DNA of 64,000 nt from Oscillospiraceae bacterium (lineage in GTDB: Bacteria > Bacillota > Clostridia > Oscillospirales > Ruminococcaceae), in assembly GCA_028689635.1 (NCBI GenBank), contig JAQVCU010000005.1, positions 4,791 through 68,790 on the forward strand, read 5' to 3'. The notes beneath the pieces are model-generated. The model did no database searches. It saw only the letters and a list, made by a program, of their open reading frames with translations, and was not told the DNA's origin. Shown piece by piece: positions 49,246-59,172 of this stretch (the first letter of the stretch is position 1; each line of letters starts with the position of its first letter). Position numbers and translations under genes: made by a program.

Positions 49246-49263
49246 GGCGTAAGGCTCTATAAA

Positions 49264-49300
49264 GCGGACGGCATTCGGCAAACTGCGGGCCGTCCGTTTT
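49264..49300 (+). terminator. candidate terminator after spoVAC
   Basis: GCGGACGGC-16-nt loop-GCCGTCCGT followed by TTTT. The loop is large, so confidence is moderate. Confidence 0.45.
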
Positions 49301-49380
49301 GTAGATGGCGGCCCTCGGCGGCCATCCCGATCCGGATCTAAATGGCTGCGCGCCGATGGATCCGGGAAAAGATACAGATA

Positions 49381-49474
49381 CAGAAACAGGGGCAGCGGAA
49401 ATGAAATTCCGCTGCCCCTGTTTCTGTCAAACAAATTTTCTATACCATATTTCAATCCACGCCCCACGGATTCG
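49381..49474 (-). ncRNA. putative CRISPR-repeat-like small RNA gene (degenerate repeat + pseudo-spacer + terminator hairpin; CreA/CreR-like)
   Basis: Minus strand 49474..49449 reads CGAATCCGTGGGGCGTGGATTGAAAT. Its last 17 nt equal the 3' end of array repeat variant B, and its last 14 nt equal variant A. This includes the whole 11-nt type I-C 5' handle. It is followed by ATGGTATAGAAAATTTGTTTGA (49448..49427). A perfect 20-bp-stem hairpin then follows (49426..49381) with a T-rich tail. Confidence 0.45.
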
Positions 49475-49500
49475 TTTTGTCACCGCACGACGACAGATAC

Positions 49501-49528
49501 AACATAACACATTCAAGAAAAAAAGCAA
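49501..49528 (-). promoter_or_regulatory. candidate promoter for the repeat-like RNA
   Basis: The minus strand reads TTGCTT (49528..49523), a 16-nt spacer, then TGtTATGTT (-10 at 49506..49501). It lies about 25-50 nt upstream of the degenerate repeat. Confidence 0.3.
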
Positions 49529-49543
49529 GATAAAATTTGTCGG

Positions 49544-49572
49544 TTGACAAAAGCCGCCTGCTTGTATATACT
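49544..49572 (+). promoter_or_regulatory. near-consensus sigma-A promoter pointing toward cas5c
   Basis: TTGACA (49544..49549), a 17-nt spacer, then TATACT (49567..49572). It lies 287 nt upstream of the cas5c ATG. Confidence 0.55.
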
Positions 49573-49583
49573 GTAGGCGAAAA

Positions 49584-49611
49584 CCAAATGATAAATATTC
49601 TATACCATGAA
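49584..49611 (-). promoter_or_regulatory. TTC-PAM-flanked partial protospacer matching the pseudo-spacer (candidate Cascade repression site)
   Basis: The minus strand reads TTC (49611..49609) then ATGGTATAGAATATTTAT.... It is identical to the pseudo-spacer at positions 1-11, 13-16 and 18. It lies roughly +5 to +30 relative to the inferred start of the 49544 promoter. Confidence 0.45.
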
Positions 49612-49858
49612 GAAAAACGAAAGCGTTTCACGTATTCGACAAATCCTGATCCGACCCGGAGCCGGTGTGATACGCTTGGAGGGCCGATGATTTTTGCGGA
49701 GCAGATAAAAAGATCCCTTTGTGGCGATAGGAGGTGTGAGAAAAACGCTGTTTGAGCCGCAAATTCCAAAGAGCAGTCCGGTTTATAGGACTGGGAGTGT
49801 GTTATTCTAAAAACACAGCAGAGAACCGAAAATCCTAGAAAGATCAAGGAGGGAAGCA

Positions 49859-50527
49859 ATGAGAAGCAAATCGTATCCAATTATGATGGAGGTTGCAGGG
49901 GACACGGCGTTGTGGACAAGGCCGGACAGCGGAGATTCCCCCTGCAGCTATCCGGCGCCAACTTACTCCGCCGTTCGCGGGCTGTTTGAGAGCGTACTAT
50001 GGGGGCCTGCTGTTCTTGTGGTCCCCAAAAAAGTTGAGCTATGCAGCATACCGCAGTACCATTCCTATGCGACAAACTATGGCGGGCCGCTGCGAAGCGC
50101 TACGGCGGTCAAGGACGGGAATAATTACCAGCTGTTTGCCACGGTGCTGACAGATGCTTGTTATCGCCTCTATGCCGAGGCGATCCCAAACCCGGATAAA
50201 ACTGCGCTGCCGGAAAGCGCAGCATTATGGGACCGGCGGACAACATCGCCGGGACACGCCTACCAGGCTATGTTTAACCGGCGGCTAAAGCGCGGGCAAT
50301 CCTATTCGACCCTGTCCTTGGGCTGGGGCGAATTCACGGCGTCTTATTTCGGCCCGTTTCGGGAAACGACACAGGTGTGCACAGAACTCCCAGATATTGT
50401 CATCCCGTCGATGCTGCGCGGCGTCTTTCAAAACGGTTATCAATCTGAATATCACGCAGTTTACGACAGGGATATCCTCATTCACGGGGGCGTTCTTGAG
50501 TATCCGGAAAGAGGCGATTGCCGATGA
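49859..50527 (+). CDS. cas5c: type I-C CRISPR-associated protein Cas5c (Cas5d, pre-crRNA endonuclease)
   Basis: 222-aa ORF after AAGGAGGG. VAGDTALWTRPDSG...SYPAPTYSAVRGLFESVLWGP parallels the Cas5d N-terminus (FGDYALFTDP...SYxVPTYxALKGIxESIYWKP). Confidence 0.88.
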   Translation: MRSKSYPIMMEVAGDTALWTRPDSGDSPCSYPAPTYSAVRGLFESVLWGPAVLVVPKKVELCSIPQYHSYATNYGGPLRSATAVKDGNNYQLFATVLTDACYRLYAEAIPNPDKTALPESAALWDRRTTSPGHAYQAMFNRRLKRGQSYSTLSLGWGEFTASYFGPFRETTQVCTELPDIVIPSMLRGVFQNGYQSEYHAVYDRDILIHGGVLEYPERGDCR

Positions 50528-52581
50528 TCAATGAATTGAGTAAACTTGCGGAAGCGATGGAAGCGTCAGGCATACAGGCGCAGATCTGGCACAGAAAATA
50601 CAAACCCATTCCAAACATCAGGGCGAAAGCGCCGTGTATTCGCATTTTGATCGCTGACGGCAAAGTGCTGGGGCTCTCGTCCGTAAAGGAAGAAATGGGG
50701 TCAGGCCTGCGGAAATACGGCACAAATCAGGGTTCTTATCCATGCATGAATTTGGCGCCGCTTTATCGAGTGACGGATGGTGAAGTGAAGAAAAAGATAT
50801 CGTCCCTTCGCCCTGAAGATTTGGACGAGGAGAAGATCGACGAGATAAGAAGCTGGTGCACAGAAAATAACTGGGGCCGCAAATTTCAGGGGAAATACAA
50901 GATCTCCATGGAAAATACGACTGCGGAACTGGCTTCGCTTGTCCCGGATTTTCAGCCCATACAGATGTTGATACGCGAGAGCGATTTTTTCATGGATCCC
51001 GACGCCCTTTATCAGCAGCTGGAGGATAGAGCGGTCGAGATACTGCAAAGCAAAGAAAATGTTTCCTTGGCGCTCAACATCCTGTTTTTTTATGGAAATC
51101 CAGAGAAAAAGGCGGTGGATGATTACGGTTCTCTTTCCGTTGCCTTTGATACGCCGGAACTGATCGATCAGGGTATGCCGGCGCTTGGCAACAAATTCAC
51201 TTTGGAATTTAACAAAGCGCTGCTGTCGGCGGATCCGATGGAGACAGAGGGATCCGATACAGGCGACGTGGACGCCTTTGGCGTTGCCTTTGAGCCGCTG
51301 GAGGAACCCATGCCGGAAGTAAAGCTCGCAGGCGGGTTTGATGTGAAGCTTCGCACGATGTTTAAAGAGCAGCGTTGCCAAACGAGATACCGCAGGATCG
51401 AAAACGCAAGCTACCCGATCTCTCCCCAAATGCGCAAAAAACTTCAGGCGGCACTTGGCTGGCTCAGCAGCGCAGAGCGTAAAAACGTCACATGGATCAA
51501 TACGGATAAAAACGAAGTTCTGTTTGCATACCCTGCAGCCCTGCCGGAAGCCTCGATCTCGTACACGAGAATGTTTAAGCGCCCGGAAAAGAAGGATGTT
51601 GCCTTTGGGGAACAGGCGAAGCGGTTTCTCACCGAAATCCGGCAGAGCAAAAAAGCAGATACGGATTCACGGGCCGAGCAAATCCAGCTCTTTATTTTGA
51701 GGAAGATCGATAAAGGGCGGACAAAAGTCGTCTACACCAGACAGACCGACCCCTATGAACTTGAAAAGCAAAGCGAAGCTTGGCAGGAGGGCTGCTTCAA
51801 TCGTCCGCTTTTTGCTTTCGGTCAACCCAACGTCCCCTTTCCCTTGGACGCGGCGGATATTTTAAACCGTTTCTGGAACCAGAAGGGCGAATCCATAACG
51901 GACAAGTTTAGGCCGATACCAAAGTATCACGGGATGGAGCTGCTCATGGACAGCCAATATCCAACAGCTGCCGACCTTCATTGTTTGGCTGAAAAGGGAA
52001 TGGCCATCGGCGCGTTTCTCGGCAAGGCGCTTGCCGAAGGGGACCGGTATCATCCCATATGGGATGAAGTCAAAGATATGCTGGCATTGACAGGGCTGAT
52101 GCTCTATCGTAACGGCATAGGAAAGGATGCGTATATGGAAAGTTTACCCTATCTCTACGGACAGCTGCTCAAGGTATCGGACGAGCTTCACGCACTATAT
52201 TGTAAGGCGGTGCGGACGGATGGCGCGCTGCCGGCGCAACTGGCCGGAGGAACCCTGTATCAGGCTGCGGTTGAAGCGCCGATTCGGACGCTGAGCCTGT
52301 TGGGACAACGAATGAATCCGTATATCACATGGGCAAAAACATACCGCACAAAAACCGTATCGGAAAAAGGAAAAGAGAGCTGGAAAGCGGGATGGCTTGT
52401 TTCGCTGTACGAGAAAACAGCCGATGAACTCGTTGCCGCATGGGATCTTCAGACCCGGTTCAATGATGAAGAAAAGGCACTGCTGTTTCTCGGATATCTT
52501 GCAAGCTTTCCCAAAAAAGAACAGGCCGTCGACGGAACAGAAGATATAAACAATACAGAGGAGGCAAACGACCATGAGTGA
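50524..52581 (+). CDS. cas8c: type I-C CRISPR-associated protein Cas8c (Csd1, large subunit)
   Basis: About 685-aa ORF. The ATG at 50524 overlaps the cas5c stop (ATGA). It lies between cas5c and cas7c at the size expected for Csd1. The call rests on position, size and general resemblance. Confidence 0.8.
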   Translation: MINELSKLAEAMEASGIQAQIWHRKYKPIPNIRAKAPCIRILIADGKVLGLSSVKEEMGSGLRKYGTNQGSYPCMNLAPLYRVTDGEVKKKISSLRPEDLDEEKIDEIRSWCTENNWGRKFQGKYKISMENTTAELASLVPDFQPIQMLIRESDFFMDPDALYQQLEDRAVEILQSKENVSLALNILFFYGNPEKKAVDDYGSLSVAFDTPELIDQGMPALGNKFTLEFNKALLSADPMETEGSDTGDVDAFGVAFEPLEEPMPEVKLAGGFDVKLRTMFKEQRCQTRYRRIENASYPISPQMRKKLQAALGWLSSAERKNVTWINTDKNEVLFAYPAALPEASISYTRMFKRPEKKDVAFGEQAKRFLTEIRQSKKADTDSRAEQIQLFILRKIDKGRTKVVYTRQTDPYELEKQSEAWQEGCFNRPLFAFGQPNVPFPLDAADILNRFWNQKGESITDKFRPIPKYHGMELLMDSQYPTAADLHCLAEKGMAIGAFLGKALAEGDRYHPIWDEVKDMLALTGLMLYRNGIGKDAYMESLPYLYGQLLKVSDELHALYCKAVRTDGALPAQLAGGTLYQAAVEAPIRTLSLLGQRMNPYITWAKTYRTKTVSEKGKESWKAGWLVSLYEKTADELVAAWDLQTRFNDEEKALLFLGYLASFPKKEQAVDGTEDINNTEEANDHE

Positions 52582-53443
52582 TATGATCAAACGCGCAACA
52601 GGCCTTTTGGTGATCGAAGTTGTCAATTCCAATCCCAACGGCGACCCCGACCGTGAAAGCGATCCGCGTCAGCGGCCGAACGGCCGCGGAGAGATCTCGC
52701 CGGTCTCGTTTAAACGCAAACTCCGCGATCTGTTGGACGACCACGACGCTCCGTTTTTTAAAGGGCTGCCCGATCGATTCTCCCTCGATCCAGAGCATTA
52801 CGCTATTTTGGAGCATCGCGGACGTGAAAGAAAAACGATTCTAGCGGAGATGGGAAAAGACCCTTCAAAATTTTTGGAAAGCGAATTTGTGCGGAAGTAC
52901 TGGGACGCCCGCGTCTTTGGCAACACCTTTTTGGAAGACGGCGGCGACAAGGGATTTATCAAAACAGGCGTCGTACAGTTTGGCATGGGCGTTTCCGTTG
53001 CTCCGATTTCGATTATCCGCCAGACCAATACGAACAAAGCCGGCGTTCAGGACGGAAAAAATGCCGGGATGGCCCCCCTTGCGTATAGGATCGTTGAACA
53101 CGGCGTATATTGCATGCCCTTTTTTGTGAACCCCAATTACGCCCACAAAAGCGGCTGCACCGCTGATGACATCGAGCTTTTGAAGCTGCTGATCCCCTAT
53201 GCCTATGAGATGAACCGCTCCGCCATTCGCCCGGACGTCCGCCTGCGTCACGCCTGGTATATCGAACATAAAAACATGCTGGGAAGCTGCCCGGAGTATC
53301 TGCTCTTTGAAGCGCTGGCCCCGGAAAAGCTGGGCGAAAAAACGAACCCTTCCGCCGCATGGAGCGAATATCAGGATAAAACCGGGCTGCCGGAGGATCT
53401 GCTTTCCCGCGTGGACAGCTGCGTCGACCTGGTGATGCGGTAA
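52574..53443 (+). CDS. cas7c: type I-C CRISPR-associated protein Cas7c (Csd2)
   Basis: 289-aa ORF with LLVIEVVNSNPNGDPDRESDPRQ...ISPVSFKRKLRD, the Csd2/Cas7 N-terminal signature. It overlaps the end of cas8c. Confidence 0.9.
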   Translation: MSDMIKRATGLLVIEVVNSNPNGDPDRESDPRQRPNGRGEISPVSFKRKLRDLLDDHDAPFFKGLPDRFSLDPEHYAILEHRGRERKTILAEMGKDPSKFLESEFVRKYWDARVFGNTFLEDGGDKGFIKTGVVQFGMGVSVAPISIIRQTNTNKAGVQDGKNAGMAPLAYRIVEHGVYCMPFFVNPNYAHKSGCTADDIELLKLLIPYAYEMNRSAIRPDVRLRHAWYIEHKNMLGSCPEYLLFEALAPEKLGEKTNPSAAWSEYQDKTGLPEDLLSRVDSCVDLVMR

Positions 53444-55632
53444 TGGAGTATCTTGCACACAGCGCCAAGGGAGAGAACCCTCCACAGACCTATGCTGCCC
53501 ATGTGGAGGGTGTCTACCACGAGGCAGGGCGGTATGCCGATGAAGCGGAACACCACTCTCGCGTCTGCGCGGGGCAGTTAAAAGGCATTGTGCGGCGCAG
53601 CGCGCTCTGGCACGATTTGGGCAAGCTGGATGATGAAAATCAAGCCTTTTTGCACGATCCCGGGCAGAAACATGGTTCTCTCCCCTGGAATCACACTGAC
53701 GCCGGCAGCGCCGCGCTGAAGGAAGGCGACAGCCCGTACTCCGCCCTTGTCGTTTTCTCCCATCACAAAGGGCTTCCCGACATGGAGTCGGAATATGCAA
53801 AACACGAGGAGATTTTCCGCGATAGCAGGCCAAGCGTCAGAAGCCATTTCGATAATGAAATGGCGCTGCTGATCAAACGGCACATGGAGATCCTTTCAGC
53901 AGACGGCCGTGGCCCGGAAGAACCGTTTGAGGGGGATCAGCCGGTCTTTTTCCGGATGGCCCTTTCCTGCCTTGCGGACGCTGACCACACGAATACCGCA
54001 GCCGCTTACGGACAGGCGCCAGAAAACGAGGAAATGCCGCAGCTTCGGTCCGGTGAGCGCTTGGAGGCGCTGGATCGTTATGTATCAGGGCTGGGGGGCG
54101 GCGATGAACGCAGCCGCCTCCGCAGCGAAATGTATGCCGCCTGCCGCGACGCAAAGGTGACCGGCGCGTTTACCGCCTGCGACAGCCCTGTGGGCTCGGG
54201 GAAAACGACGGCGGTGATGGCGCATCTGCTCCGGCAGGCAATGGAGCGAAACGCAAGACGGGTCTTTGTCGTCCTGCCCTATACCAACATCATCAAACAA
54301 TCGGTGGATGTTTACCGAAAGTCGTTGGTGCTGCCGGGGGAGGATCCGGAAAAAGTTGTGGCGGAGCTGCACAGCCGTGCGGATTTTCAGGACGAAGATA
54401 CGCGGTATTTGACGTCGCTTTGGCGTGCGCCGGTCGTTGTTACGACCGCAGTAGCCTTTTTTGAAACATTGGCCTCCAACAGGCCGTCTGCCCTAAGAAG
54501 GCTCCACGAGCTGCCGGGAAGCGTTGTTTTTGTCGATGAGGCGCACAATTCCCTGCCGCTAAAACTCTTGCCGCTGGCGTGGCGCTGGATGAATACGCTG
54601 GCGGAGGAGTGGAACTGTTACTGGGTTTTGGCGTCGGGTTCCCTTGTGAGGTATTGGCAGCTCGACAGCTTGGGTTCAGTAGAAATGCCTCGGCCTGCGG
54701 TTGCGGATCTGGTCGATGAAAACCTGCGAGAACAGCTGATGCAGTATGAGCAGCGCAGAGTCCTTTTTGAGTGGAAACGCGAGGCGATAAGCCGTGAAGA
54801 ACTGGTGGACTGGGTGCGAAGCACGCCCGGACCGCGGCTGCTGATTTTGAACACCGTGCAAAGCGCCGCGGTGATCGCGGAGGATTTTTGCAAAGCGTGC
54901 GGCAGAAACTGCGTCGAGCATCTGTCTACGGCGTTAACGGCAGAGGACAGGAACAACACGATCGAGCGGGTGAAAGCGCGGCTGAAAGATAAAAGTGATA
55001 CGGATTGGACACTTGTCGCGACGTCATGCGTTGAGGCCGGCGTGGACTTTTCTTTTCGGAGCGGCTTTCGCGAGCTGTCGTCCCTGCTCTCCCTTCTGCA
55101 GGCCGCCGGCAGGGTAAACCGCAACGGGATTTATCCAGACGCCGCCATGTGGAGCTTTGCCATGCAGGATGATTCCATGCTGAAAAAGAACCCCGGCTTT
55201 GATACTTCGCGCGAGGTGCTGAAAAGCTATCTCAACAAAGGAGTAGAAATTGTGCCGGAGCTCAGCACGAGGTCAATGAACGATGAGATCATCCTTGACG
55301 ACAGTTGCCTTAAAACGATCAACTGTCTGAACAATGAGGAAGACGCCTCGTGTTTTGACACTGTCTGCAGTAAGTTTGTGGTGATCGAATCCAATACGGT
55401 GACCGTTGTCGTAGAGGGCGAGCTTGCGAAGTCGATCGAGCACGGCCAAGGCGATTGGCAGCGGCTGCAAAAGAAATCCGTATCCATCCGGCGCGAGAGA
55501 ATAAAGTCCTGGGCCCTAAAAGAAATTGCAAAGGGCGTGTTTCAGTGGACGCTGCGTTATGACCCTTTTCTGGGATATATGTGCGGCGTGCTGGACCTTG
55601 AGAAAAGCAAAGATGGGATGCTGGAGGTCTAA
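53443..55632 (+). CDS. cas3: CRISPR-associated helicase/nuclease Cas3 (HD + DEAH helicase)
   Basis: 729-aa ORF. HD motifs are present (LWHDLGKLD, LADADHTN). It also has Walker A (SPVGSGKTTA), a DEAH box (VFVDEAHN) and a C-terminal helicase lobe. The start overlaps the cas7c stop (TAATG). Confidence 0.9.
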   Translation: MEYLAHSAKGENPPQTYAAHVEGVYHEAGRYADEAEHHSRVCAGQLKGIVRRSALWHDLGKLDDENQAFLHDPGQKHGSLPWNHTDAGSAALKEGDSPYSALVVFSHHKGLPDMESEYAKHEEIFRDSRPSVRSHFDNEMALLIKRHMEILSADGRGPEEPFEGDQPVFFRMALSCLADADHTNTAAAYGQAPENEEMPQLRSGERLEALDRYVSGLGGGDERSRLRSEMYAACRDAKVTGAFTACDSPVGSGKTTAVMAHLLRQAMERNARRVFVVLPYTNIIKQSVDVYRKSLVLPGEDPEKVVAELHSRADFQDEDTRYLTSLWRAPVVVTTAVAFFETLASNRPSALRRLHELPGSVVFVDEAHNSLPLKLLPLAWRWMNTLAEEWNCYWVLASGSLVRYWQLDSLGSVEMPRPAVADLVDENLREQLMQYEQRRVLFEWKREAISREELVDWVRSTPGPRLLILNTVQSAAVIAEDFCKACGRNCVEHLSTALTAEDRNNTIERVKARLKDKSDTDWTLVATSCVEAGVDFSFRSGFRELSSLLSLLQAAGRVNRNGIYPDAAMWSFAMQDDSMLKKNPGFDTSREVLKSYLNKGVEIVPELSTRSMNDEIILDDSCLKTINCLNNEEDASCFDTVCSKFVVIESNTVTVVVEGELAKSIEHGQGDWQRLQKKSVSIRRERIKSWALKEIAKGVFQWTLRYDPFLGYMCGVLDLEKSKDGMLEV

Positions 55633-55704
55633 ATACGTCTGAGCAAGTCCATACCGGCCTTGCGTGTTTTGTGAAAAAGCAATGTTTGGAGGTGACGGCA
55701 TGGG

Positions 55705-56370
55705 GTGATGGAATACAGCCCGGATGACTATCTCCAGCTTTCGGGCCTGCAGCACTTTTTATTCTGCCGCCGGCAGTGGGCGCTGATACACATAGAAGAT
55801 CAATGGGAGGAAAATTTTCGTACTGCGGATGGAAGGCTGATGCATGACAGGGCGCACAACGAGGCGCTGACCGAAAAGCGCGGCGATGTGATAACGGCGC
55901 GAGGGGTCGAAATTTATTCGCGGAGCCTGGGGGTGTCCGGCAAATGCGACGTTTTGGAATTTCACCGCGACACGTTTGGCGTGCCGCTTTCGCGTTGGGA
56001 AGGCTGCTGGAAGCCTTCCCCCGTGGAATATAAGCGCGGCGCGCCAAAGCCCGGGAATTGCGATGCGGCGCAGCTCTGCGGCCAGGCGATGTGCCTTGAG
56101 GAAATGCTGTGCGTGGATATTCCGCGTGGGGCGTTGTTCTACGGAGAAACCAGAAGGCGCGTCGAGGTCGCGTTTACCGCGGAACTGAGAGGCACGGTCA
56201 AAAACGCTTTGGAGGAGATGCACGAAATGTACCGCCGTGGCCATACCCCGCGCGCAAAACCTTCAAAGTCCTGCAATGCCTGTTCGCTCAAAGAACGGTG
56301 CCTGCCTAAGCTTGCGCGTACAGGAAGCGTTTCGGATTATATCGCGCATCGGATGGAGGAGGGCGTATGA
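55705..56370 (+). CDS. cas4: CRISPR-associated exonuclease Cas4 (RecB-like, 4-Cys)
   Basis: 221-aa ORF. LSGLQHFLFCRRQWALIHIE carries the first Cys, followed by the RecB motifs and the C-terminal CNACSLKERC cluster. Confidence 0.9.
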   Translation: MMEYSPDDYLQLSGLQHFLFCRRQWALIHIEDQWEENFRTADGRLMHDRAHNEALTEKRGDVITARGVEIYSRSLGVSGKCDVLEFHRDTFGVPLSRWEGCWKPSPVEYKRGAPKPGNCDAAQLCGQAMCLEEMLCVDIPRGALFYGETRRRVEVAFTAELRGTVKNALEEMHEMYRRGHTPRAKPSKSCNACSLKERCLPKLARTGSVSDYIAHRMEEGV

Positions 56371-57398
56371 AAAAATTGCTCAACACCCTGTTTGTTCTCT
56401 CAGAGGACGCCTATCTGATCCTTGACGGTGAAAATGTTAAAGTGCTGCGCGGCGAGACCGAAACAGGCCGGTTCCCCCTGCACACCCTGGAGGGTATTTT
56501 CACCTTCGCGTACCCGGGCGCGAGCCCGGCTTTGATGGGGGCGTGCGCAAAGCGGGGAGTCAACCTCTGCTTTCACACGCCGAACGGCCGGTTCCTGGCG
56601 AGGACTGTAGGCGCGTCCAACGGGAATGTTCTGCTTCGGCGCGCGCAGTACCGCGTGGCGGATGATCCCCTTGCATATTGCAAAATTGCGAGGGCGATGG
56701 TGTTCGGCAAAGTGTATAACGCGCGCTGGAGCGTAGACCGCACGCTTCGGGACCATGCTATGCGGGTAGACGCGGAAAAGCTTCGCGAGACCTGTAGGAA
56801 ACTGAGCTCCGCATTTGAACCGATCGTCTCCGAAACGGACATGGAAAGCCTGCGGGGATTGGAGGGCGCTGCGGCGGCGGAGTATTTTGGCGTTTTTGAC
56901 GAGATGATACTGGGCGACAAGAAGACCTTCTTCTTCCAAGGCAGAAACCGTCGCCCGCCGCTGGACAATGTTAACGCAATGCTGTCGTTTGTATATTCAA
57001 TTTTGTCAAACGACTGCGCGTCAGCCCTGGAAGCGGTGGGGCTCGATTCCTTTGTCGGTTTTATGCACAGAGACAGGCCGGGGCGCGCGTCCCTTGCCCT
57101 GGACCTGATGGAGGAATTAAGGCCCTGCCTTGCCGATCGCTTTGTACTGACAGCGATCAACAACCGCATGATGGATACCGGTGATTTTATTCAATACGAA
57201 GGCGGAGCCGTTACGATGACGGACGATGGCCGCAGAAAGCTGCTGAAGGCGTGGCAGGAGCGAAAGCGCGAGGTGATCACGCATCCATATCTTGGCGAGA
57301 AGCTGGCATGGGGGATCATCCCCTATGTCCAGGCGCTGCTTTTAGCGCGTTGCCTTCGCGGCGATCTAGACCAATATCCGCCGTTTTTATGGAAGTAG
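56367..57398 (+). CDS. cas1: type I-C CRISPR-associated endonuclease Cas1
   Basis: 343-aa ORF overlapping the cas4 stop (ATGA). It shows Cas1c-like features (NTLFVLSEDAYL..., FQGRNRRPPLDNVNAMLSFVYSIL, GFMHRDRPGRASLALDLMEE). Confidence 0.93.
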   Translation: MKKLLNTLFVLSEDAYLILDGENVKVLRGETETGRFPLHTLEGIFTFAYPGASPALMGACAKRGVNLCFHTPNGRFLARTVGASNGNVLLRRAQYRVADDPLAYCKIARAMVFGKVYNARWSVDRTLRDHAMRVDAEKLRETCRKLSSAFEPIVSETDMESLRGLEGAAAAEYFGVFDEMILGDKKTFFFQGRNRRPPLDNVNAMLSFVYSILSNDCASALEAVGLDSFVGFMHRDRPGRASLALDLMEELRPCLADRFVLTAINNRMMDTGDFIQYEGGAVTMTDDGRRKLLKAWQERKREVITHPYLGEKLAWGIIPYVQALLLARCLRGDLDQYPPFLWK

Positions 57399-57408
57399 GT
57401 GACCGCAG

Positions 57409-57699
57409 ATGCTTGTTCTGATCACATATGATGTAAACACCGAGAACGCTGCCGGACGCCGGCGTCTGCGATTGATTGCAAAGCAATGCGTAAACTATGG
57501 GCAACGGGTGCAAAACAGCGTTTTTGAATGTTTGCTGGATGCGGCTCAGTATCGTATCCTGCAAAGCAAACTATGTGGTATCATGGATGCAGAACGGGAC
57601 AGCCTGCGCTTTTACAACCTGGGCAATCATTACAGCAGCCGGATCGAACACTTCGGAATAAAGGAAAGCTATGATCCGGAGGGGGTGCTGATGCTCTGA
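57409..57699 (+). CDS. cas2: CRISPR-associated endoribonuclease Cas2
   Basis: 96-aa ORF starting MLVLITYDVNTENAAGRRRLRLIAKQCVNYGQRVQNSVFEC, the canonical Cas2 N-terminus. Confidence 0.93.
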   Translation: MLVLITYDVNTENAAGRRRLRLIAKQCVNYGQRVQNSVFECLLDAAQYRILQSKLCGIMDAERDSLRFYNLGNHYSSRIEHFGIKESYDPEGVLML

Positions 57700-57858: not shown

Positions 57859-59172
57859 GTCGCTCCCCACACGGGGAGCGTGGATTGAAATTTGAAAAAT
57901 CGCCGACAAGTAGGATGCGACGGCGAGTCGCTCCCCACACGGGGAGCGTGGATTGAAATTTGAAAAATCGCCGACAAGTAGGATGCGACGGCGAGTCGCT
58001 CCCCACACGGGGAGCGTGGATTGAAATCGTTGCCATGCAGATGTGGGCTAACCCTCCGTGGTCGCTCCCCACACGGGGAGCGTGGATTGAAATAGAGAAT
58101 GGTATCTCTCGTTCTTACGAGAACGGGTCGCTCCCCACACGGGGAGCGTGGATTGAAATGGAAATACTCTTGTAATCTCCCTTGTACCTGTTCGTCGCTC
58201 CCCACACGGGGAGCGTGGATTGAAATATAGGGATTACGCAAACAAATCTTGCCCCGGAAGTCGCTCCCCACACGGGGAGCGTGGATTGAAATTTAAATCT
58301 TCCATCTTTGAATCTTGTCATCACGAAGTCGCTCCCCACACGGGGAGCGTGGATTGAAATAGACTTGGGTTAAGGTAGCAGTCGAAGCGGCTGAGGTCGC
58401 TCCCCACACGGGGAGCGTGGATTGAAATAATAGTATAATAAATCTGCTACAATCCAATAATCGTCGCTCCCCACACGGGGAGCGTGGATTGAAATGTCTA
58501 ATATCTGGTCTTTGCTATATCCTTGATTGTGTCGCTCCCCACACGGGGAGCGTGGATTGAAATTGTTGTCTCCGGTGCTTCTCGCGCTGTTATGCGGTCG
58601 CTTCCCGTACGGGGGGCGTGGATTGAAATTCCTGGGGCGTCTCCTTTGGCGGATCCCACCGCTTGTCGCTTCCCGTACGGGGGGGCGTGGATTGAAATAA
58701 CCGGTGGAGTTTTAACACCAATGACAGCCCACAGGTCGCTTCCCGTACGGGGGGCGTGGATTGAAATTGTAGTATTTCATTTTTTTCTCCTTTGGAAAAA
58801 GTCGCTTCCCGTACGGGGGGCGTGGATTGAAATAATGAGCTGCTGAAAAGAGCCTTGGGCTTCCAACGTCGCTTCCCGTACGGGGGGGCGTGGATTGAAA
58901 TAAAGACATATTTGTCCATCGTCGGGATCGCCCGCTGTCGCTTCCCGTACGGGGGGCGTGGATTGAAATATTACACAGGTAATTGGTGGTTGTGGCGTAT
59001 ATCGTCGCTTCCCGTACGGGGGGCGTGGATTGAAATCAGCAAAGCCCGAACTTCCGAATCCGAACAGGCCAGGTCGCTTCCCGTACGGGGGGCGTGGATT
59101 GAAATACTCTCATTCCCGAAGGAACTCATGTGTTCCATCGTCGTTCCCCGCACGGGGAGCGTGGACTAAAAA
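57859..59172 (+). CRISPR. type I-C CRISPR array, 20 repeats / 19 spacers
   Basis: Repeats 1-11 (57859..58563) read GTCGCTCCCCACACGGGGAGCGTGGATTGAAAT. Repeats 12-19 (58597..59105) read GTCGCTTCCCGTACGGGGGGCGTGGATTGAAAT, and two of them (58665, 58868) carry an extra G. The terminal repeat (59140..59172) is degenerate, GTCGTTCCCCGCACGGGGAGCGTGGACTAAAAA. Spacers are 33-36 nt. Confidence 0.98.

Follow-up and report, generated by a model that had tools for sequence, protein, structure and literature searches.

A solitary degenerate CRISPR repeat upstream of cas5c as a probable CreR-type autorepressor of a divergent type I-C system

In the 64-kb stretch of DNA analysed here as a whole (64,000 nucleotides, hereinafter the window), the minus strand of the intergenic gap upstream of cas5c in all probability (about 0.8) carries the gene of a CreR-type crRNA-like RNA, which would repress the cas operon via Cascade without cleavage by Cas3. 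Evidence for this comes from the anatomy of the sequence, from the statistical significance of the match between guide and target, from the PAM flanking the latter and from family-wide co-variation of guide/target pairs. The original prediction offered two readings of the locus, a CreR-like autorepression loop and a CreTA-like addiction module; the first is supported by at least 15 independent I-C loci with co-varying pairs and by the distribution of mismatches over positions 6 and 12, while the search for the second yielded neither toxin gene nor leader homolog, structure or family match.

Results

Type I-C system of the window

The operon proposed to be regulated, cas5c-cas8c-cas7c-cas3-cas4-cas1-cas2, occupies 49859..57699 of the plus strand and consists of cas5c (49859-50527), cas8c (50518-52581), cas7c (52574-53443), cas3 (53443-55632), cas4 (55705-56370), cas1 (56367-57398) and cas2 (57409-57699). 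The CRISPR array on the same strand (57859..59172), which is the source of competing crRNAs, contains 19 repeats, 11 of variant A and then 8 of variant B, with a degenerate terminal repeat at 59140..59172 (plus strand). Assignment to type I-C is based on the presence of Cas5c (Cas5d family), Cas8c and Cas7c and the absence of Cas6, with Pfam Cas_Cas5d and Cas_Cas7 scoring over the cut-offs and with a repeat of the form GTCGC...GGATTGAAAT and a TTC PAM as expected for this subtype. NCBIfam I-C models stay below their cut-offs, Cas8c is devoid of family match and cas3 is placed after cas7; the system represents a divergent lineage.

Small RNA gene on the minus strand

Minus strand 49474..49449 reads CGAATCCGTGGGGCGTGGATTGAAAT, and its 3′-most 17 nt reproduce exactly the 3′ end of array repeat variant B, while the 3′-most 14 nt coincide with that of variant A. 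Outside the array GTGGATTGAAAT is present in a single copy versus 19 copies inside it, the chance expectation being 0.22 even with one mismatch allowed; this solitary copy is inverted relative to the array, lies 8.4 kb away from it and falls within the 613-bp gap 49246..49858. The whole degenerate repeat (psi-R, 49449..49494, minus strand) can be written as GTCGTCGTGCGGTGACAAAACGAATCCGTGGGGCG followed by TGGATTGAAAT, and the 17 of 17 nt shared with variant B (49465..49449) include the entire 11-nt 5′ handle (49459..49449, minus strand). These features agree with the original prediction, which described a repeat remnant with intact handle, present as a single inverted copy in a gap of about 600 bp, with correct coordinates and identities to both variants. 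The same prediction regarded the 5′ half of the repeat as destroyed, and this holds for sequence identity, which is lost, but not entirely for the hairpin, which is rather weakened: a substitute interrupted stem of 9 bp with a 13-nt loop (CGUC.UGCGG / CCGUG.GGCG) can be drawn in psi-R, its base adjoins the handle and the segment starts with GUCG as in the true repeat. This stem is not distinguishable from that of shuffled sequence (z -1.0) and scores 0 in the contiguous-stem test; given its interrupted and non-significant character, processing of the window’s RNA by Cas5c may be inefficient.

The handle is followed by a 22-nt pseudo-spacer (psi-S, 49427..49448, minus strand), ATGGTATAGAAAATTTGTTTGA, in which positions 1-16 (49448..49433) constitute the guide proper, and then by a hairpin at 49381..49426 (minus strand) of 20-21 bp with a 6-nt loop and the adjoining UAUCUGUAUCUUUUCC, in accordance with the pseudo-spacer and approximately 20-bp hairpin predicted beforehand. 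With a computed energy of -43.3 kcal/mol and a z-score of -9.6, this hairpin stands where a second repeat would be expected and probably terminates the small RNA and caps its 3′ end, the U-richness of the terminator tail being moderate. A candidate promoter of the small RNA is located at 49501..49528 (minus strand) and combines TTGCTT (49528..49523) with an extended -10 element TGtTATGTT (49509..49501) at 16 nt spacing. It was read by eye, is weak and stays under the threshold of both promoter scans; the predicted start lies near G49494.

Target site in the cas promoter region

Minus strand 49611..49593 reads TTC followed by ATGGTATAGAATATTT and agrees with the guide at positions 1-11, 13-16 and 18, that is, in 15 of 16 positions of the guide proper with position 12 as the sole mismatch and with no pairing past position 18. 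The similarity begins exactly at the handle/guide and PAM/protospacer boundaries, and the flanks are unrelated. The nominal 34-nt protospacer covers 49575..49608 (minus strand), where 49608..49593, except for mismatch 12, and position 18 are pairable, and the PAM 5′-TTC-3′ (49609..49611, minus strand) resides on the guide-identical strand. TTC is confirmed as the PAM of the window’s own system by a protospacer in a phage, which matches array spacer 58970..59003 in 33 of 34 positions and carries TTC at its 5′ side. The promoter facing the cas operon, TTGACA-17-TATACT (49544..49572, plus strand), coincides with consensus in 11 of 12 positions, and the promoter scan gave no other good candidate on the plus strand from spoVA to cas5c; both the promoter and its start at ~49579-49581 are consensus-based predictions. 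The protospacer starts 3 nt past the -10 box (which ends at 49572) and spans from about -4 to +30 of the predicted cas transcript, so placed that the strand paired by the guide is the non-template one. The proposals that a TTC-flanked site matches the pseudo-spacer at the listed positions and that it overlaps the early transcript of this promoter were thus correct, coordinates included.

The guide/target match is far beyond chance. When the intergenic gap was shuffled 20,000 times with dinucleotides preserved, a TTY-flanked site with 15/16 identity was attained in 0 cases and 13/16 in only 3. In the unshuffled gap, none of some 620 decoy anchors gave more than 12/16. Across the 64-kb window the guide and target sites are the sole matches with 3 mismatches tolerated, so that no further targets of the guide were found there at this stringency.

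Recurrence and co-variation in related cas5c loci

The comparison encompassed 157 related cas5c loci, one of which belongs to Hungatella hathewayi DSM 13479. Upstream of cas5c, 22 distinct solitary repeat ends occur on the strand opposite to it. For 15 of them (the window’s included) there is a site, flanked by TTC or TTT, that agrees with the guide in 13 or more of positions 1-16, with decoy P ≤ 0.005 for each of the 15 guide/target pairs. Counted over loci, 22 of the ~136 whose upstream sequence is long enough to judge combine a solitary repeat with a TTY-flanked site of 13/16 identity or better. Guides vary between loci and targets co-vary with them, only the 12-nt handle being alignable across the family, and matching falls to background level past approximately position 18. 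In a search unconstrained by PAM, all 10 minus-strand cases with a match of at least 13 nt carried TTC or TTT. Positions 6 and 12 are the guide bases left unpaired by Cascade, and precisely there are located 22 of the 25 mismatches registered within positions 1-12 across the family; since such a pattern is expected only for pairing by Cascade, it supports action through this complex.

Family members share a common layout composed of stem, 11-nt handle, guide of ~20 nt and terminator hairpin. Stems ending 0-3 nt 5′ of the handle are enriched across the family (Fisher P 2e-5), a strong hairpin starts ~15-38 nt past the handle in all 17 loci examined that have a candidate target, and related loci have a TTTACA/TTGACA-17-TAnAAT promoter upstream of the solitary repeat at the same distance as the window’s candidate. 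Targets overlap or abut the predicted -10 element or start, or else immediately precede the -35 box, and are separated from the cas5c start by 17-120 nt in other members versus 251 nt in the window. Presence of cas4/cas1/cas2 and of an array is not predictive of the element, which is encountered in both kinds of loci. The single-repeat, terminator-capped form is a recurring one in this Cas5c lineage.

As to the nearest surroundings of the window’s own system, the Cas5c relatives obtained from genome and metagenome scans did not exceed 84% identity, and the closest relatives considered altogether (82-88% identity, the three best protein matches being at 85-88%) have no solitary repeat upstream. 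One contig (L168) encodes an identical Cas5c, and the 94 nt of upstream sequence that it contains are identical to the window. The search for a second strain carrying the window’s guide retrieved none, and no record was found for the SpoVAC protein encoded upstream of the gap. The proposed check of related loci was thereby successful with regard to co-variation, found in 15 pairs, and not with regard to a relative with the same guide: the conservation observed is that of the class of elements and not of the window’s particular guide.

Leader of the cas transcript

The predicted leader of the cas transcript (49579..49858, plus strand, ~280 nt) is unusually long for the family of related loci, and no other member has the ~250-nt stretch that here separates the Cascade site from cas5c. 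The leader has no homolog among 167 fetched loci, its structure is not significant (z -0.85), Rfam gives no match in it and its small ORFs are without Pfam or NCBIfam match. An ORF of at least 30 aa with a family match, as the non-cas defence genes of a CRISIS (CRISPR-supervised immune system) would provide, is absent between 49611 and 49859. Downstream of the targeted promoter neither toxin candidate nor conserved sequence or significant structure was found. The only leader ORF with a Shine-Dalgarno sequence, which is weak and poorly spaced, has 22 codons (49687..49755) and includes ATA, AGA and tandem AGG-AGG, minor codons here (4-4.5 per 1000). In a genome of 59% G+C, non-coding DNA of any kind can be expected to contain rare A/T-rich codons, and this ORF was judged a chance occurrence rather than a toxin.

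Discussion

Expression and processing of the small RNA, its binding and the resulting repression are what we infer from these observations, and the sequence of events could be as follows. Transcription would begin near 49494, and Cas5c would cleave at the base of what is left of the repeat stem, releasing the 11-nt handle UGGAUUGAAAU, the cut being proposed because the handle is intact and because I-C crlRNAs are known to be processed in this way. With the 3′ end at or within the 20-bp terminator hairpin, the RNA would be ~55-90 nt long. Cascade composed of Cas5c, Cas8c and Cas7c and provided with a 16-18 nt guide would then recognise the TTC-flanked site 49611..49591, and a short R-loop would keep it on the non-template strand, presumably blocking RNA polymerase and lowering transcription of the entire operon from cas5c to cas2. 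Since pairing stops after ~18 nt, a full R-loop could not form, so that Cas3 would not be recruited and the chromosome would remain uncut. Such a circuit implies negative feedback, in which more Cascade gives more repression, and it may be relieved by array crRNAs competing for Cas proteins or by anti-CRISPR proteins.

Several other explanations may be weighed against autorepression. The element could be a decaying or inactive relic of a functional regulator, no longer made or processed, with the cas promoter out of its control, as the weakness of the small-RNA promoter, the interrupted and non-significant repeat stem, the just moderately U-rich terminator tail and the lack of the element in the nearest Cas5c relatives might suggest. 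It is the most constrained parts, however, that are intact, namely the 11 handle bases plus 6 adjacent ones, the TTC PAM and 15 of 16 guide positions, and the sole mismatch falls on unpaired position 12, whereas mismatches in the seed would be expected of a relic, which makes this reading unlikely. Still less probable is a CreTA- or CrePA-like addiction module, where the promoter at 49544 would mainly control a toxin in the 280-nt leader, either an RNA sequestering a rare tRNA or a small peptide, and loss of Cascade would entail cell death. The unusual length of the leader, with 251 nt between target and cas5c as compared to 17-120 nt elsewhere, speaks for it together with the 22-codon ORF, its weak Shine-Dalgarno sequence and its minor codons, but the leader lacks homologs, significant structure and matches in Rfam, Pfam or NCBIfam, the Shine-Dalgarno spacing is poor, such rare codons are expected of non-coding DNA in this G+C-rich genome, and most family members have no space for a toxin. 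Moreover, the transcript continues into cas5c, so repression of cas would result regardless. That the ~250-nt stretch specifically encodes a Cascade-repressed toxin, for instance the ORF 49687..49755 sequestering a rare tRNA as CreT does, is a very doubtful supposition; if true, it would turn the locus into a CreTA-type addiction module for type I-C in gut Clostridia rather than a plain autorepressor.

Complementarity of the small RNA to the cas mRNA at 49593..49608 also permits a Cascade-independent antisense mechanism, with pairing to approximately +14 to +30 of the leader altering stability or translation of the messenger. It leaves unexplained why the match starts exactly after an intact Cascade handle, why the TTC/TTT flank is constant and why the mismatches of the family gather at positions 6 and 12, and the site is ~250 nt away from the ribosome-binding site; we consider this mechanism extremely improbable. 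Finally, a stray repeat fragment beside a locally duplicated A/T-rich segment could be imagined in view of the A/T-richness of the region relative to the genome, yet none of the 20,000 shuffles attained the observed match, the similarity ends exactly at the handle and PAM boundaries and at least 15 loci show the same arrangement with sequences unrelated to one another. Chance or duplication is effectively refuted by the shuffles and by decoy anchors and family recurrence, and its remaining probability is negligible.

Autorepression through Cascade as the preferred reading makes the locus a statistically solid example of such control, presumably exerted by a crRNA-like RNA, in type I-C of a human-gut spore-forming Firmicute, and the bias of mismatches towards positions 6 and 12 over independent pairs provides comparative evidence of action through Cascade. 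Where endogenous I-C systems are expressed or repurposed in gut Clostridia, a self-limited cas operon should be expected, and Cas levels should rise once the small RNA is deleted or its target mutated. The element also flags loci in which phage anti-CRISPR proteins or RNA mimics would induce cas.

Autorepression by CreR has been validated for types I-B, I-E and V-A, and creA-like candidates for I-C were listed after manual search, with no experiment reported (bioRxiv 10.1101/2023.03.10.532045, Fig. S7). As in CreR, the degenerate repeat of the window keeps the bases of the 5′ handle, the pseudo-spacer agrees, by its PAM-proximal end only, with a PAM-flanked site at the effector cas promoter, and a toxin does not adjoin, the predicted autorepression being relievable by crRNA competition or anti-CRISPR proteins. 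In contrast to validated type I CreRs, which are mini-arrays with two repeat-like sequences, the window combines one repeat with a terminator hairpin and belongs to subtype I-C, namely to a divergent lineage with cas3 after cas7 in a gut spore-forming Firmicute. CreA of the CreTA module (Haloarcula hispanica, I-B) is likewise a degenerate mini-CRISPR guiding Cascade to a promoter by partial complementarity without cleavage, but it has two repeat-like sequences as compared to one here, and in the window no toxin gene, the defining part of CreTA, is detected under the promoter presumed to be repressed.

Subtype and RNA architecture are shared with the single-repeat crlRNAs of Neisseria I-C systems, which keep embedded defence systems (CRISIS: Nezha and others) repressed; in these RNAs Cas5c cuts 3′ of a hairpin to produce the 11-nt handle, the 3′ end is situated in a hairpin loop, and positions 6 and 12 were experimentally shown to be unpaired (bioRxiv 10.1101/2024.12.27.630466). 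Common to both are one repeat-like sequence, with a hairpin that is putative in the window, 11-nt handle, short guide and 3′ hairpin, as well as a TTC-type PAM, unpaired positions 6/12 and location in the gap upstream of cas5c. Neisseria crlRNAs are directed to the promoter of defence genes inserted between cas3 and cas5c, whereas the window’s RNA is aimed at the cas promoter itself, with no gene between target and cas5c; its gene is divergent from the cas operon and its repeat stem is weaker. I-C Cas3 binds the full R-loop state only, and the PAM is TTY (10.1101/2023.08.05.552134). The original prediction knew of no such element in a clostridial I-C system; I-C candidates and validated I-C crlRNAs had in fact already been published.

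Solitary repeats derived from CRISPR also give rise to viral RNAs, namely Racr (PMC10651486), and viral mimics of CreR are described as Cracr (10.1101/2024.10.29.618823). The window’s element is similar to them as a solitary repeat-derived small RNA expected to load into Cas effectors, and I-C examples of the viral kind exist, but those are phage- or plasmid-borne and act against the host system, while the present one is part of the chromosome, within the cas locus itself. An exact 26-mer search for a viral copy of the guide gave no match, and neither did comparison of the intergenic gap with a phage collection; the 8 matches of an 18-mer guide search, none preceded by GGA and several apparently in coding sequence, look like chance rather than viral mimics. 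In a broader survey repeat-like sequences were reported for 34% of I-C loci and mini-arrays for 7%, the spacers of regulatory mini-arrays having partial complementarity to cas promoters with valid PAM and seed (Shmakov et al., 2023, PMC10120712, Table 1). Type I solitary repeats were mostly treated there as possible decayed mini-arrays, and I-C targets were not analysed, whereas what is conserved in the present family is the form with one repeat, a terminator replacing the second. The element of the window thus adds a member to the known CreR/crlRNA kind rather than opening a new concept.

Type I-C Locus and Its PAM

The operon (cas5c-cas8c-cas7c-cas3-cas4-cas1-cas2) is accompanied by a plus-strand array (57859..59105) of 19 repeats typical of type I-C, 11 of variant A (GTCGCTCCCCACACGGGGAGCGTGGATTGAAAT) and 8 of variant B (GTCGCTTCCCGTACGGGGGGCGTGGATTGAAAT), followed by a degenerate terminal repeat at 59140..59172. 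The switch from A to B, two copies of which carry an extra G, takes place at about 58590, and the two leader-proximal spacers are identical (TTGAAAAATCGCCGACAAGTAGGATGCGACGGCGA twice, 57892..57994). By I-C standards the Cas proteins are divergent (effector genes 49859..55632), scoring under the NCBIfam cut-offs (54 bits against 85 for Cas5c; 114 against 182 for Cas7); neither Pfam nor NCBIfam gave a match for the 687-aa Cas8c, and cas3 is placed after cas7, not before cas5c; the system is an atypical, divergent I-C lineage. Spacer 58970..59003 has a protospacer on a human-faecal phage scaffold, identical at 33 of 34 positions and directly preceded by 5′-TTC, which defines TTC as the PAM of the window's own system, on the strand and side originally proposed.

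Solitary Repeat and Its Target Upstream of cas5c

On the minus strand of the 613-bp gap between a spoVA gene and cas5c, a degenerate repeat remnant (49474..49449) reads CGAATCCGTGGGGCGTGGATTGAAAT, coinciding over its last 17 nt with the 3′ end of variant B and over its last 14 nt with that of variant A. Motif search of the window found GTGGATTGAAAT outside the array only here, in a single copy inverted relative to the array. Directly 3′ of the remnant lies a 22-nt pseudo-spacer, ATGGTATAGAAAATTTGTTTGA, and then, instead of a second repeat, a 20–21 bp hairpin (−43.3 kcal/mol, z −9.6). The partial target (minus strand, 49611..49593) reads TTC followed by ATGGTATAGAATATTT and begins 3 nt past the −10 box of a predicted cas promoter, TTGACA-17-TATACT (49544..49572, plus strand, toward cas5c; 11/12 consensus match); the nominal protospacer 49608..49575 spans about −4 to +30 of the predicted transcript. 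Reading of both strands bore out what the original prediction stated of the sequence.

Its further claim, that the 5′ half of the repeat is destroyed while the handle is intact, stands for the handle; yet an interrupted 9-bp helix (CGUC.UGCGG / CCGUG.GGCG, 13-nt loop) abutting the handle can be drawn in a segment that begins with GUCG, as the true repeat does. This stem is no better than that of shuffled sequence and weaker than upstream stems in the family. A weak candidate promoter under scan thresholds, TTGCTT-16-TGtTATGTT (49528..49501, minus strand), would place the small-RNA start at ~49494, where that segment begins. The 20-bp hairpin (49381..49426) is symmetric, is turned on the plus strand toward the spoVA operon as well, and may serve as a bidirectional terminator; the spoVA operon has its own terminator-like hairpin right after the stop codon (49262..49300).

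Chance hardly produces such a match: with the element masked, a TTY-flanked site agreeing with the guide at 15 of its first 16 bases arose in none of 20,000 dinucleotide-preserving gap shuffles and three reached 13, while decoy anchors in the real gap attained at best 12/16. No further guide-matching site occurs in the 64-kb window with up to three mismatches allowed.

Recurrence and Co-variation in Related Loci

Cas5c scans yielded 80 genome and 74 metagenome loci (57–84% identity), to which three contigs encoding the best protein matches were added. By simple motif search, a solitary GATTGAAA[TC] was detected on the strand opposite cas5c, 140–430 nt upstream, in 33 loci; within 700 nt of the gene these supply 22 different guides. 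In a position-blind test, the best TTN-flanked site for the first 16 bases of each guide was set against decoys from every other position in its gap, and 15 of the 22 guides, including the window's, gave at least 13 matches (decoy P ≤ 0.005 each). Guides are unrelated in sequence across loci and each target tracks its own guide; such co-variation holds at family level, between loci with different guides. In the nearest Cas5c relatives the element is absent upstream of cas5c. When the PAM was left unconstrained, TTC or TTT flanked 10 of 10 minus-strand cases matching over at least 13 nt.

The distribution of mismatches bears on the origin of the match, which might also be sought in plain RNA–RNA antisense pairing or in duplication. 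Within positions 1–12 of the 15 pairs, 22 of 25 mismatches fall at position 6 or 12 (about 4 expected if evenly spread), and matching drops to background beyond positions 17–18 in every pair. Cascade flips out every sixth base, and this combination, not expected for antisense pairing or for duplication, is the signature of pairing inside Cascade; the limit of ~17–18 nt points to selection against full complementarity. Duplication is further argued against by the similarity starting exactly at the handle/guide and PAM/protospacer boundaries, with the flanks of guide and target unrelated to each other.

The architecture is shared as well. In 17 examined loci that have a candidate target, a strong hairpin starts roughly 15–38 nt after the handle, usually followed by a U-run, and no second repeat follows the guide; across the family, short stems that stop 0–3 nt short of the 11-nt handle are commoner than in shuffled sequence (Fisher P 2e-5). 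In its downstream half the window's element conforms perfectly to this layout, its upstream stem being weaker, and other loci have better predicted small-RNA promoters at the same relative place. Family targets overlap or abut the predicted −10 box and start site, or sit just upstream of the −35 box, and lie on the strand of the small RNA gene, so the guide would pair with the non-template strand.

Most of the closest Cas5c relatives (L001-L016, L019-L031 and others) are cas5-cas8-cas7-cas3 modules lacking both cas4/cas1/cas2 and an array within 7–10 kb. Eight module loci (L045, L057, L058, L062, L083, L087-L089) keep the solitary repeat and promoter target, the regulatory guide being the only one nearby. 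In metagenome loci L125-L128 and L146, same-strand I-C arrays of >100 repeats extend to a point 19 nt short of the cas5c start codon. Locus L002, which has no solitary repeat, shows a 17-nt motif, CCTCACTACCCACTGGA, three times in the 900 nt preceding cas5c, at intervals of about 60 and 180 nt; these copies could be operator sites for different, protein-based control. On a human-faecal "Bacteriophage sp." scaffold (L167, MT837669.1 5616..5654), one solitary I-C-like repeat, CGCTCCCCGTGCGGGGAGCGCGGATTGAAAT, precedes unrelated sequence with no resemblance to the window guide and could be a viral, Racr-like solitary repeat; another scaffold, MT838487.1, carries an I-C-like array.

Autorepression or Addiction

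Starting from the observed anatomy, significance, PAM and family co-variation, we infer RNA synthesis, processing, loading and repression along these lines. The small RNA would be transcribed and processed to the handle, the 22-nt pseudo-spacer (16–18 nt able to pair) and the hairpin; loaded into Cascade, it would hold the complex on the first transcribed stretch of the cas operon, repressing the operon without cleavage, and depletion of free Cascade by array crRNAs or anti-CRISPR proteins would relieve repression. In type I-C, where the PAM is TTY, Cas3 binds only to the full R-loop (10.1101/2023.08.05.552134).

The original prediction named two alternatives, a CreR-like autorepressor and a CreTA-like addiction module; in the latter, Cascade would repress a toxin. 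The CreTA reading might draw on the unusual target-to-cas5c distance, about 250 nt against 17–120 nt elsewhere in the family, and on a 22-codon ORF within it (49687..49755, plus strand; MIFAEQIKRSLCGDRRCEKNAV; weak Shine-Dalgarno, GGAGGG 3 nt before ATG) containing ATA, AGA and tandem AGG-AGG, all of them minor codons in the genome (59% G+C). However, such codons are expected in any A/T-rich non-coding stretch, and the leader searches found no toxin candidate: no homolog in any fetched locus, no significant fold, no Rfam match and no protein-family match for small ORFs. CreTA is therefore of low probability and a CreR-type autorepressor, which gains from the family co-variation, is favoured. 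The only other member with long spacing, L026 (Clostridia bacterium MGBC000058), has about 390 nt between its solitary repeat (−432) and own target (−38) upstream of cas5c.

Relation to Known Systems

CreR-guided autorepression was demonstrated for I-B, I-E and V-A, with I-C elements listed by manual search (10.1101/2023.03.10.532045); a survey reported repeat-like sequence in 34% of I-C loci (PMC10120712, Table 1), and I-C CreA/R elements were used to search for viral mimics (10.1101/2024.10.29.618823). In Neisseria the single-repeat architecture of type I-C was characterised by experiment: Cas5c cuts crRNA-like RNAs (crlRNAs) 3′ of a hairpin to give the 11-nt handle, the 3′ end lies in the loop of a 3′ hairpin, no pairing takes place at positions 6 and 12, and TTC or TTA serves as PAM (10.1101/2024.12.27.630466). 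Thus the suspicion that such an element was undescribed for I-C proved mistaken (10.1101/2023.03.10.532045, PMC10120712, 10.1101/2024.12.27.630466): the kind is already known and the window holds a new member. No experiment on autorepression of cas genes in type I-C turned up in the searchable library. What is added is a member from a divergent gut-Clostridia I-C lineage whose target is the cas promoter itself, with comparative support from related loci in recurrence, co-variation and position-6/12 mismatches; in its sequence it shares the single repeat, 11-nt handle and 3′ hairpin with the Neisseria crlRNAs.
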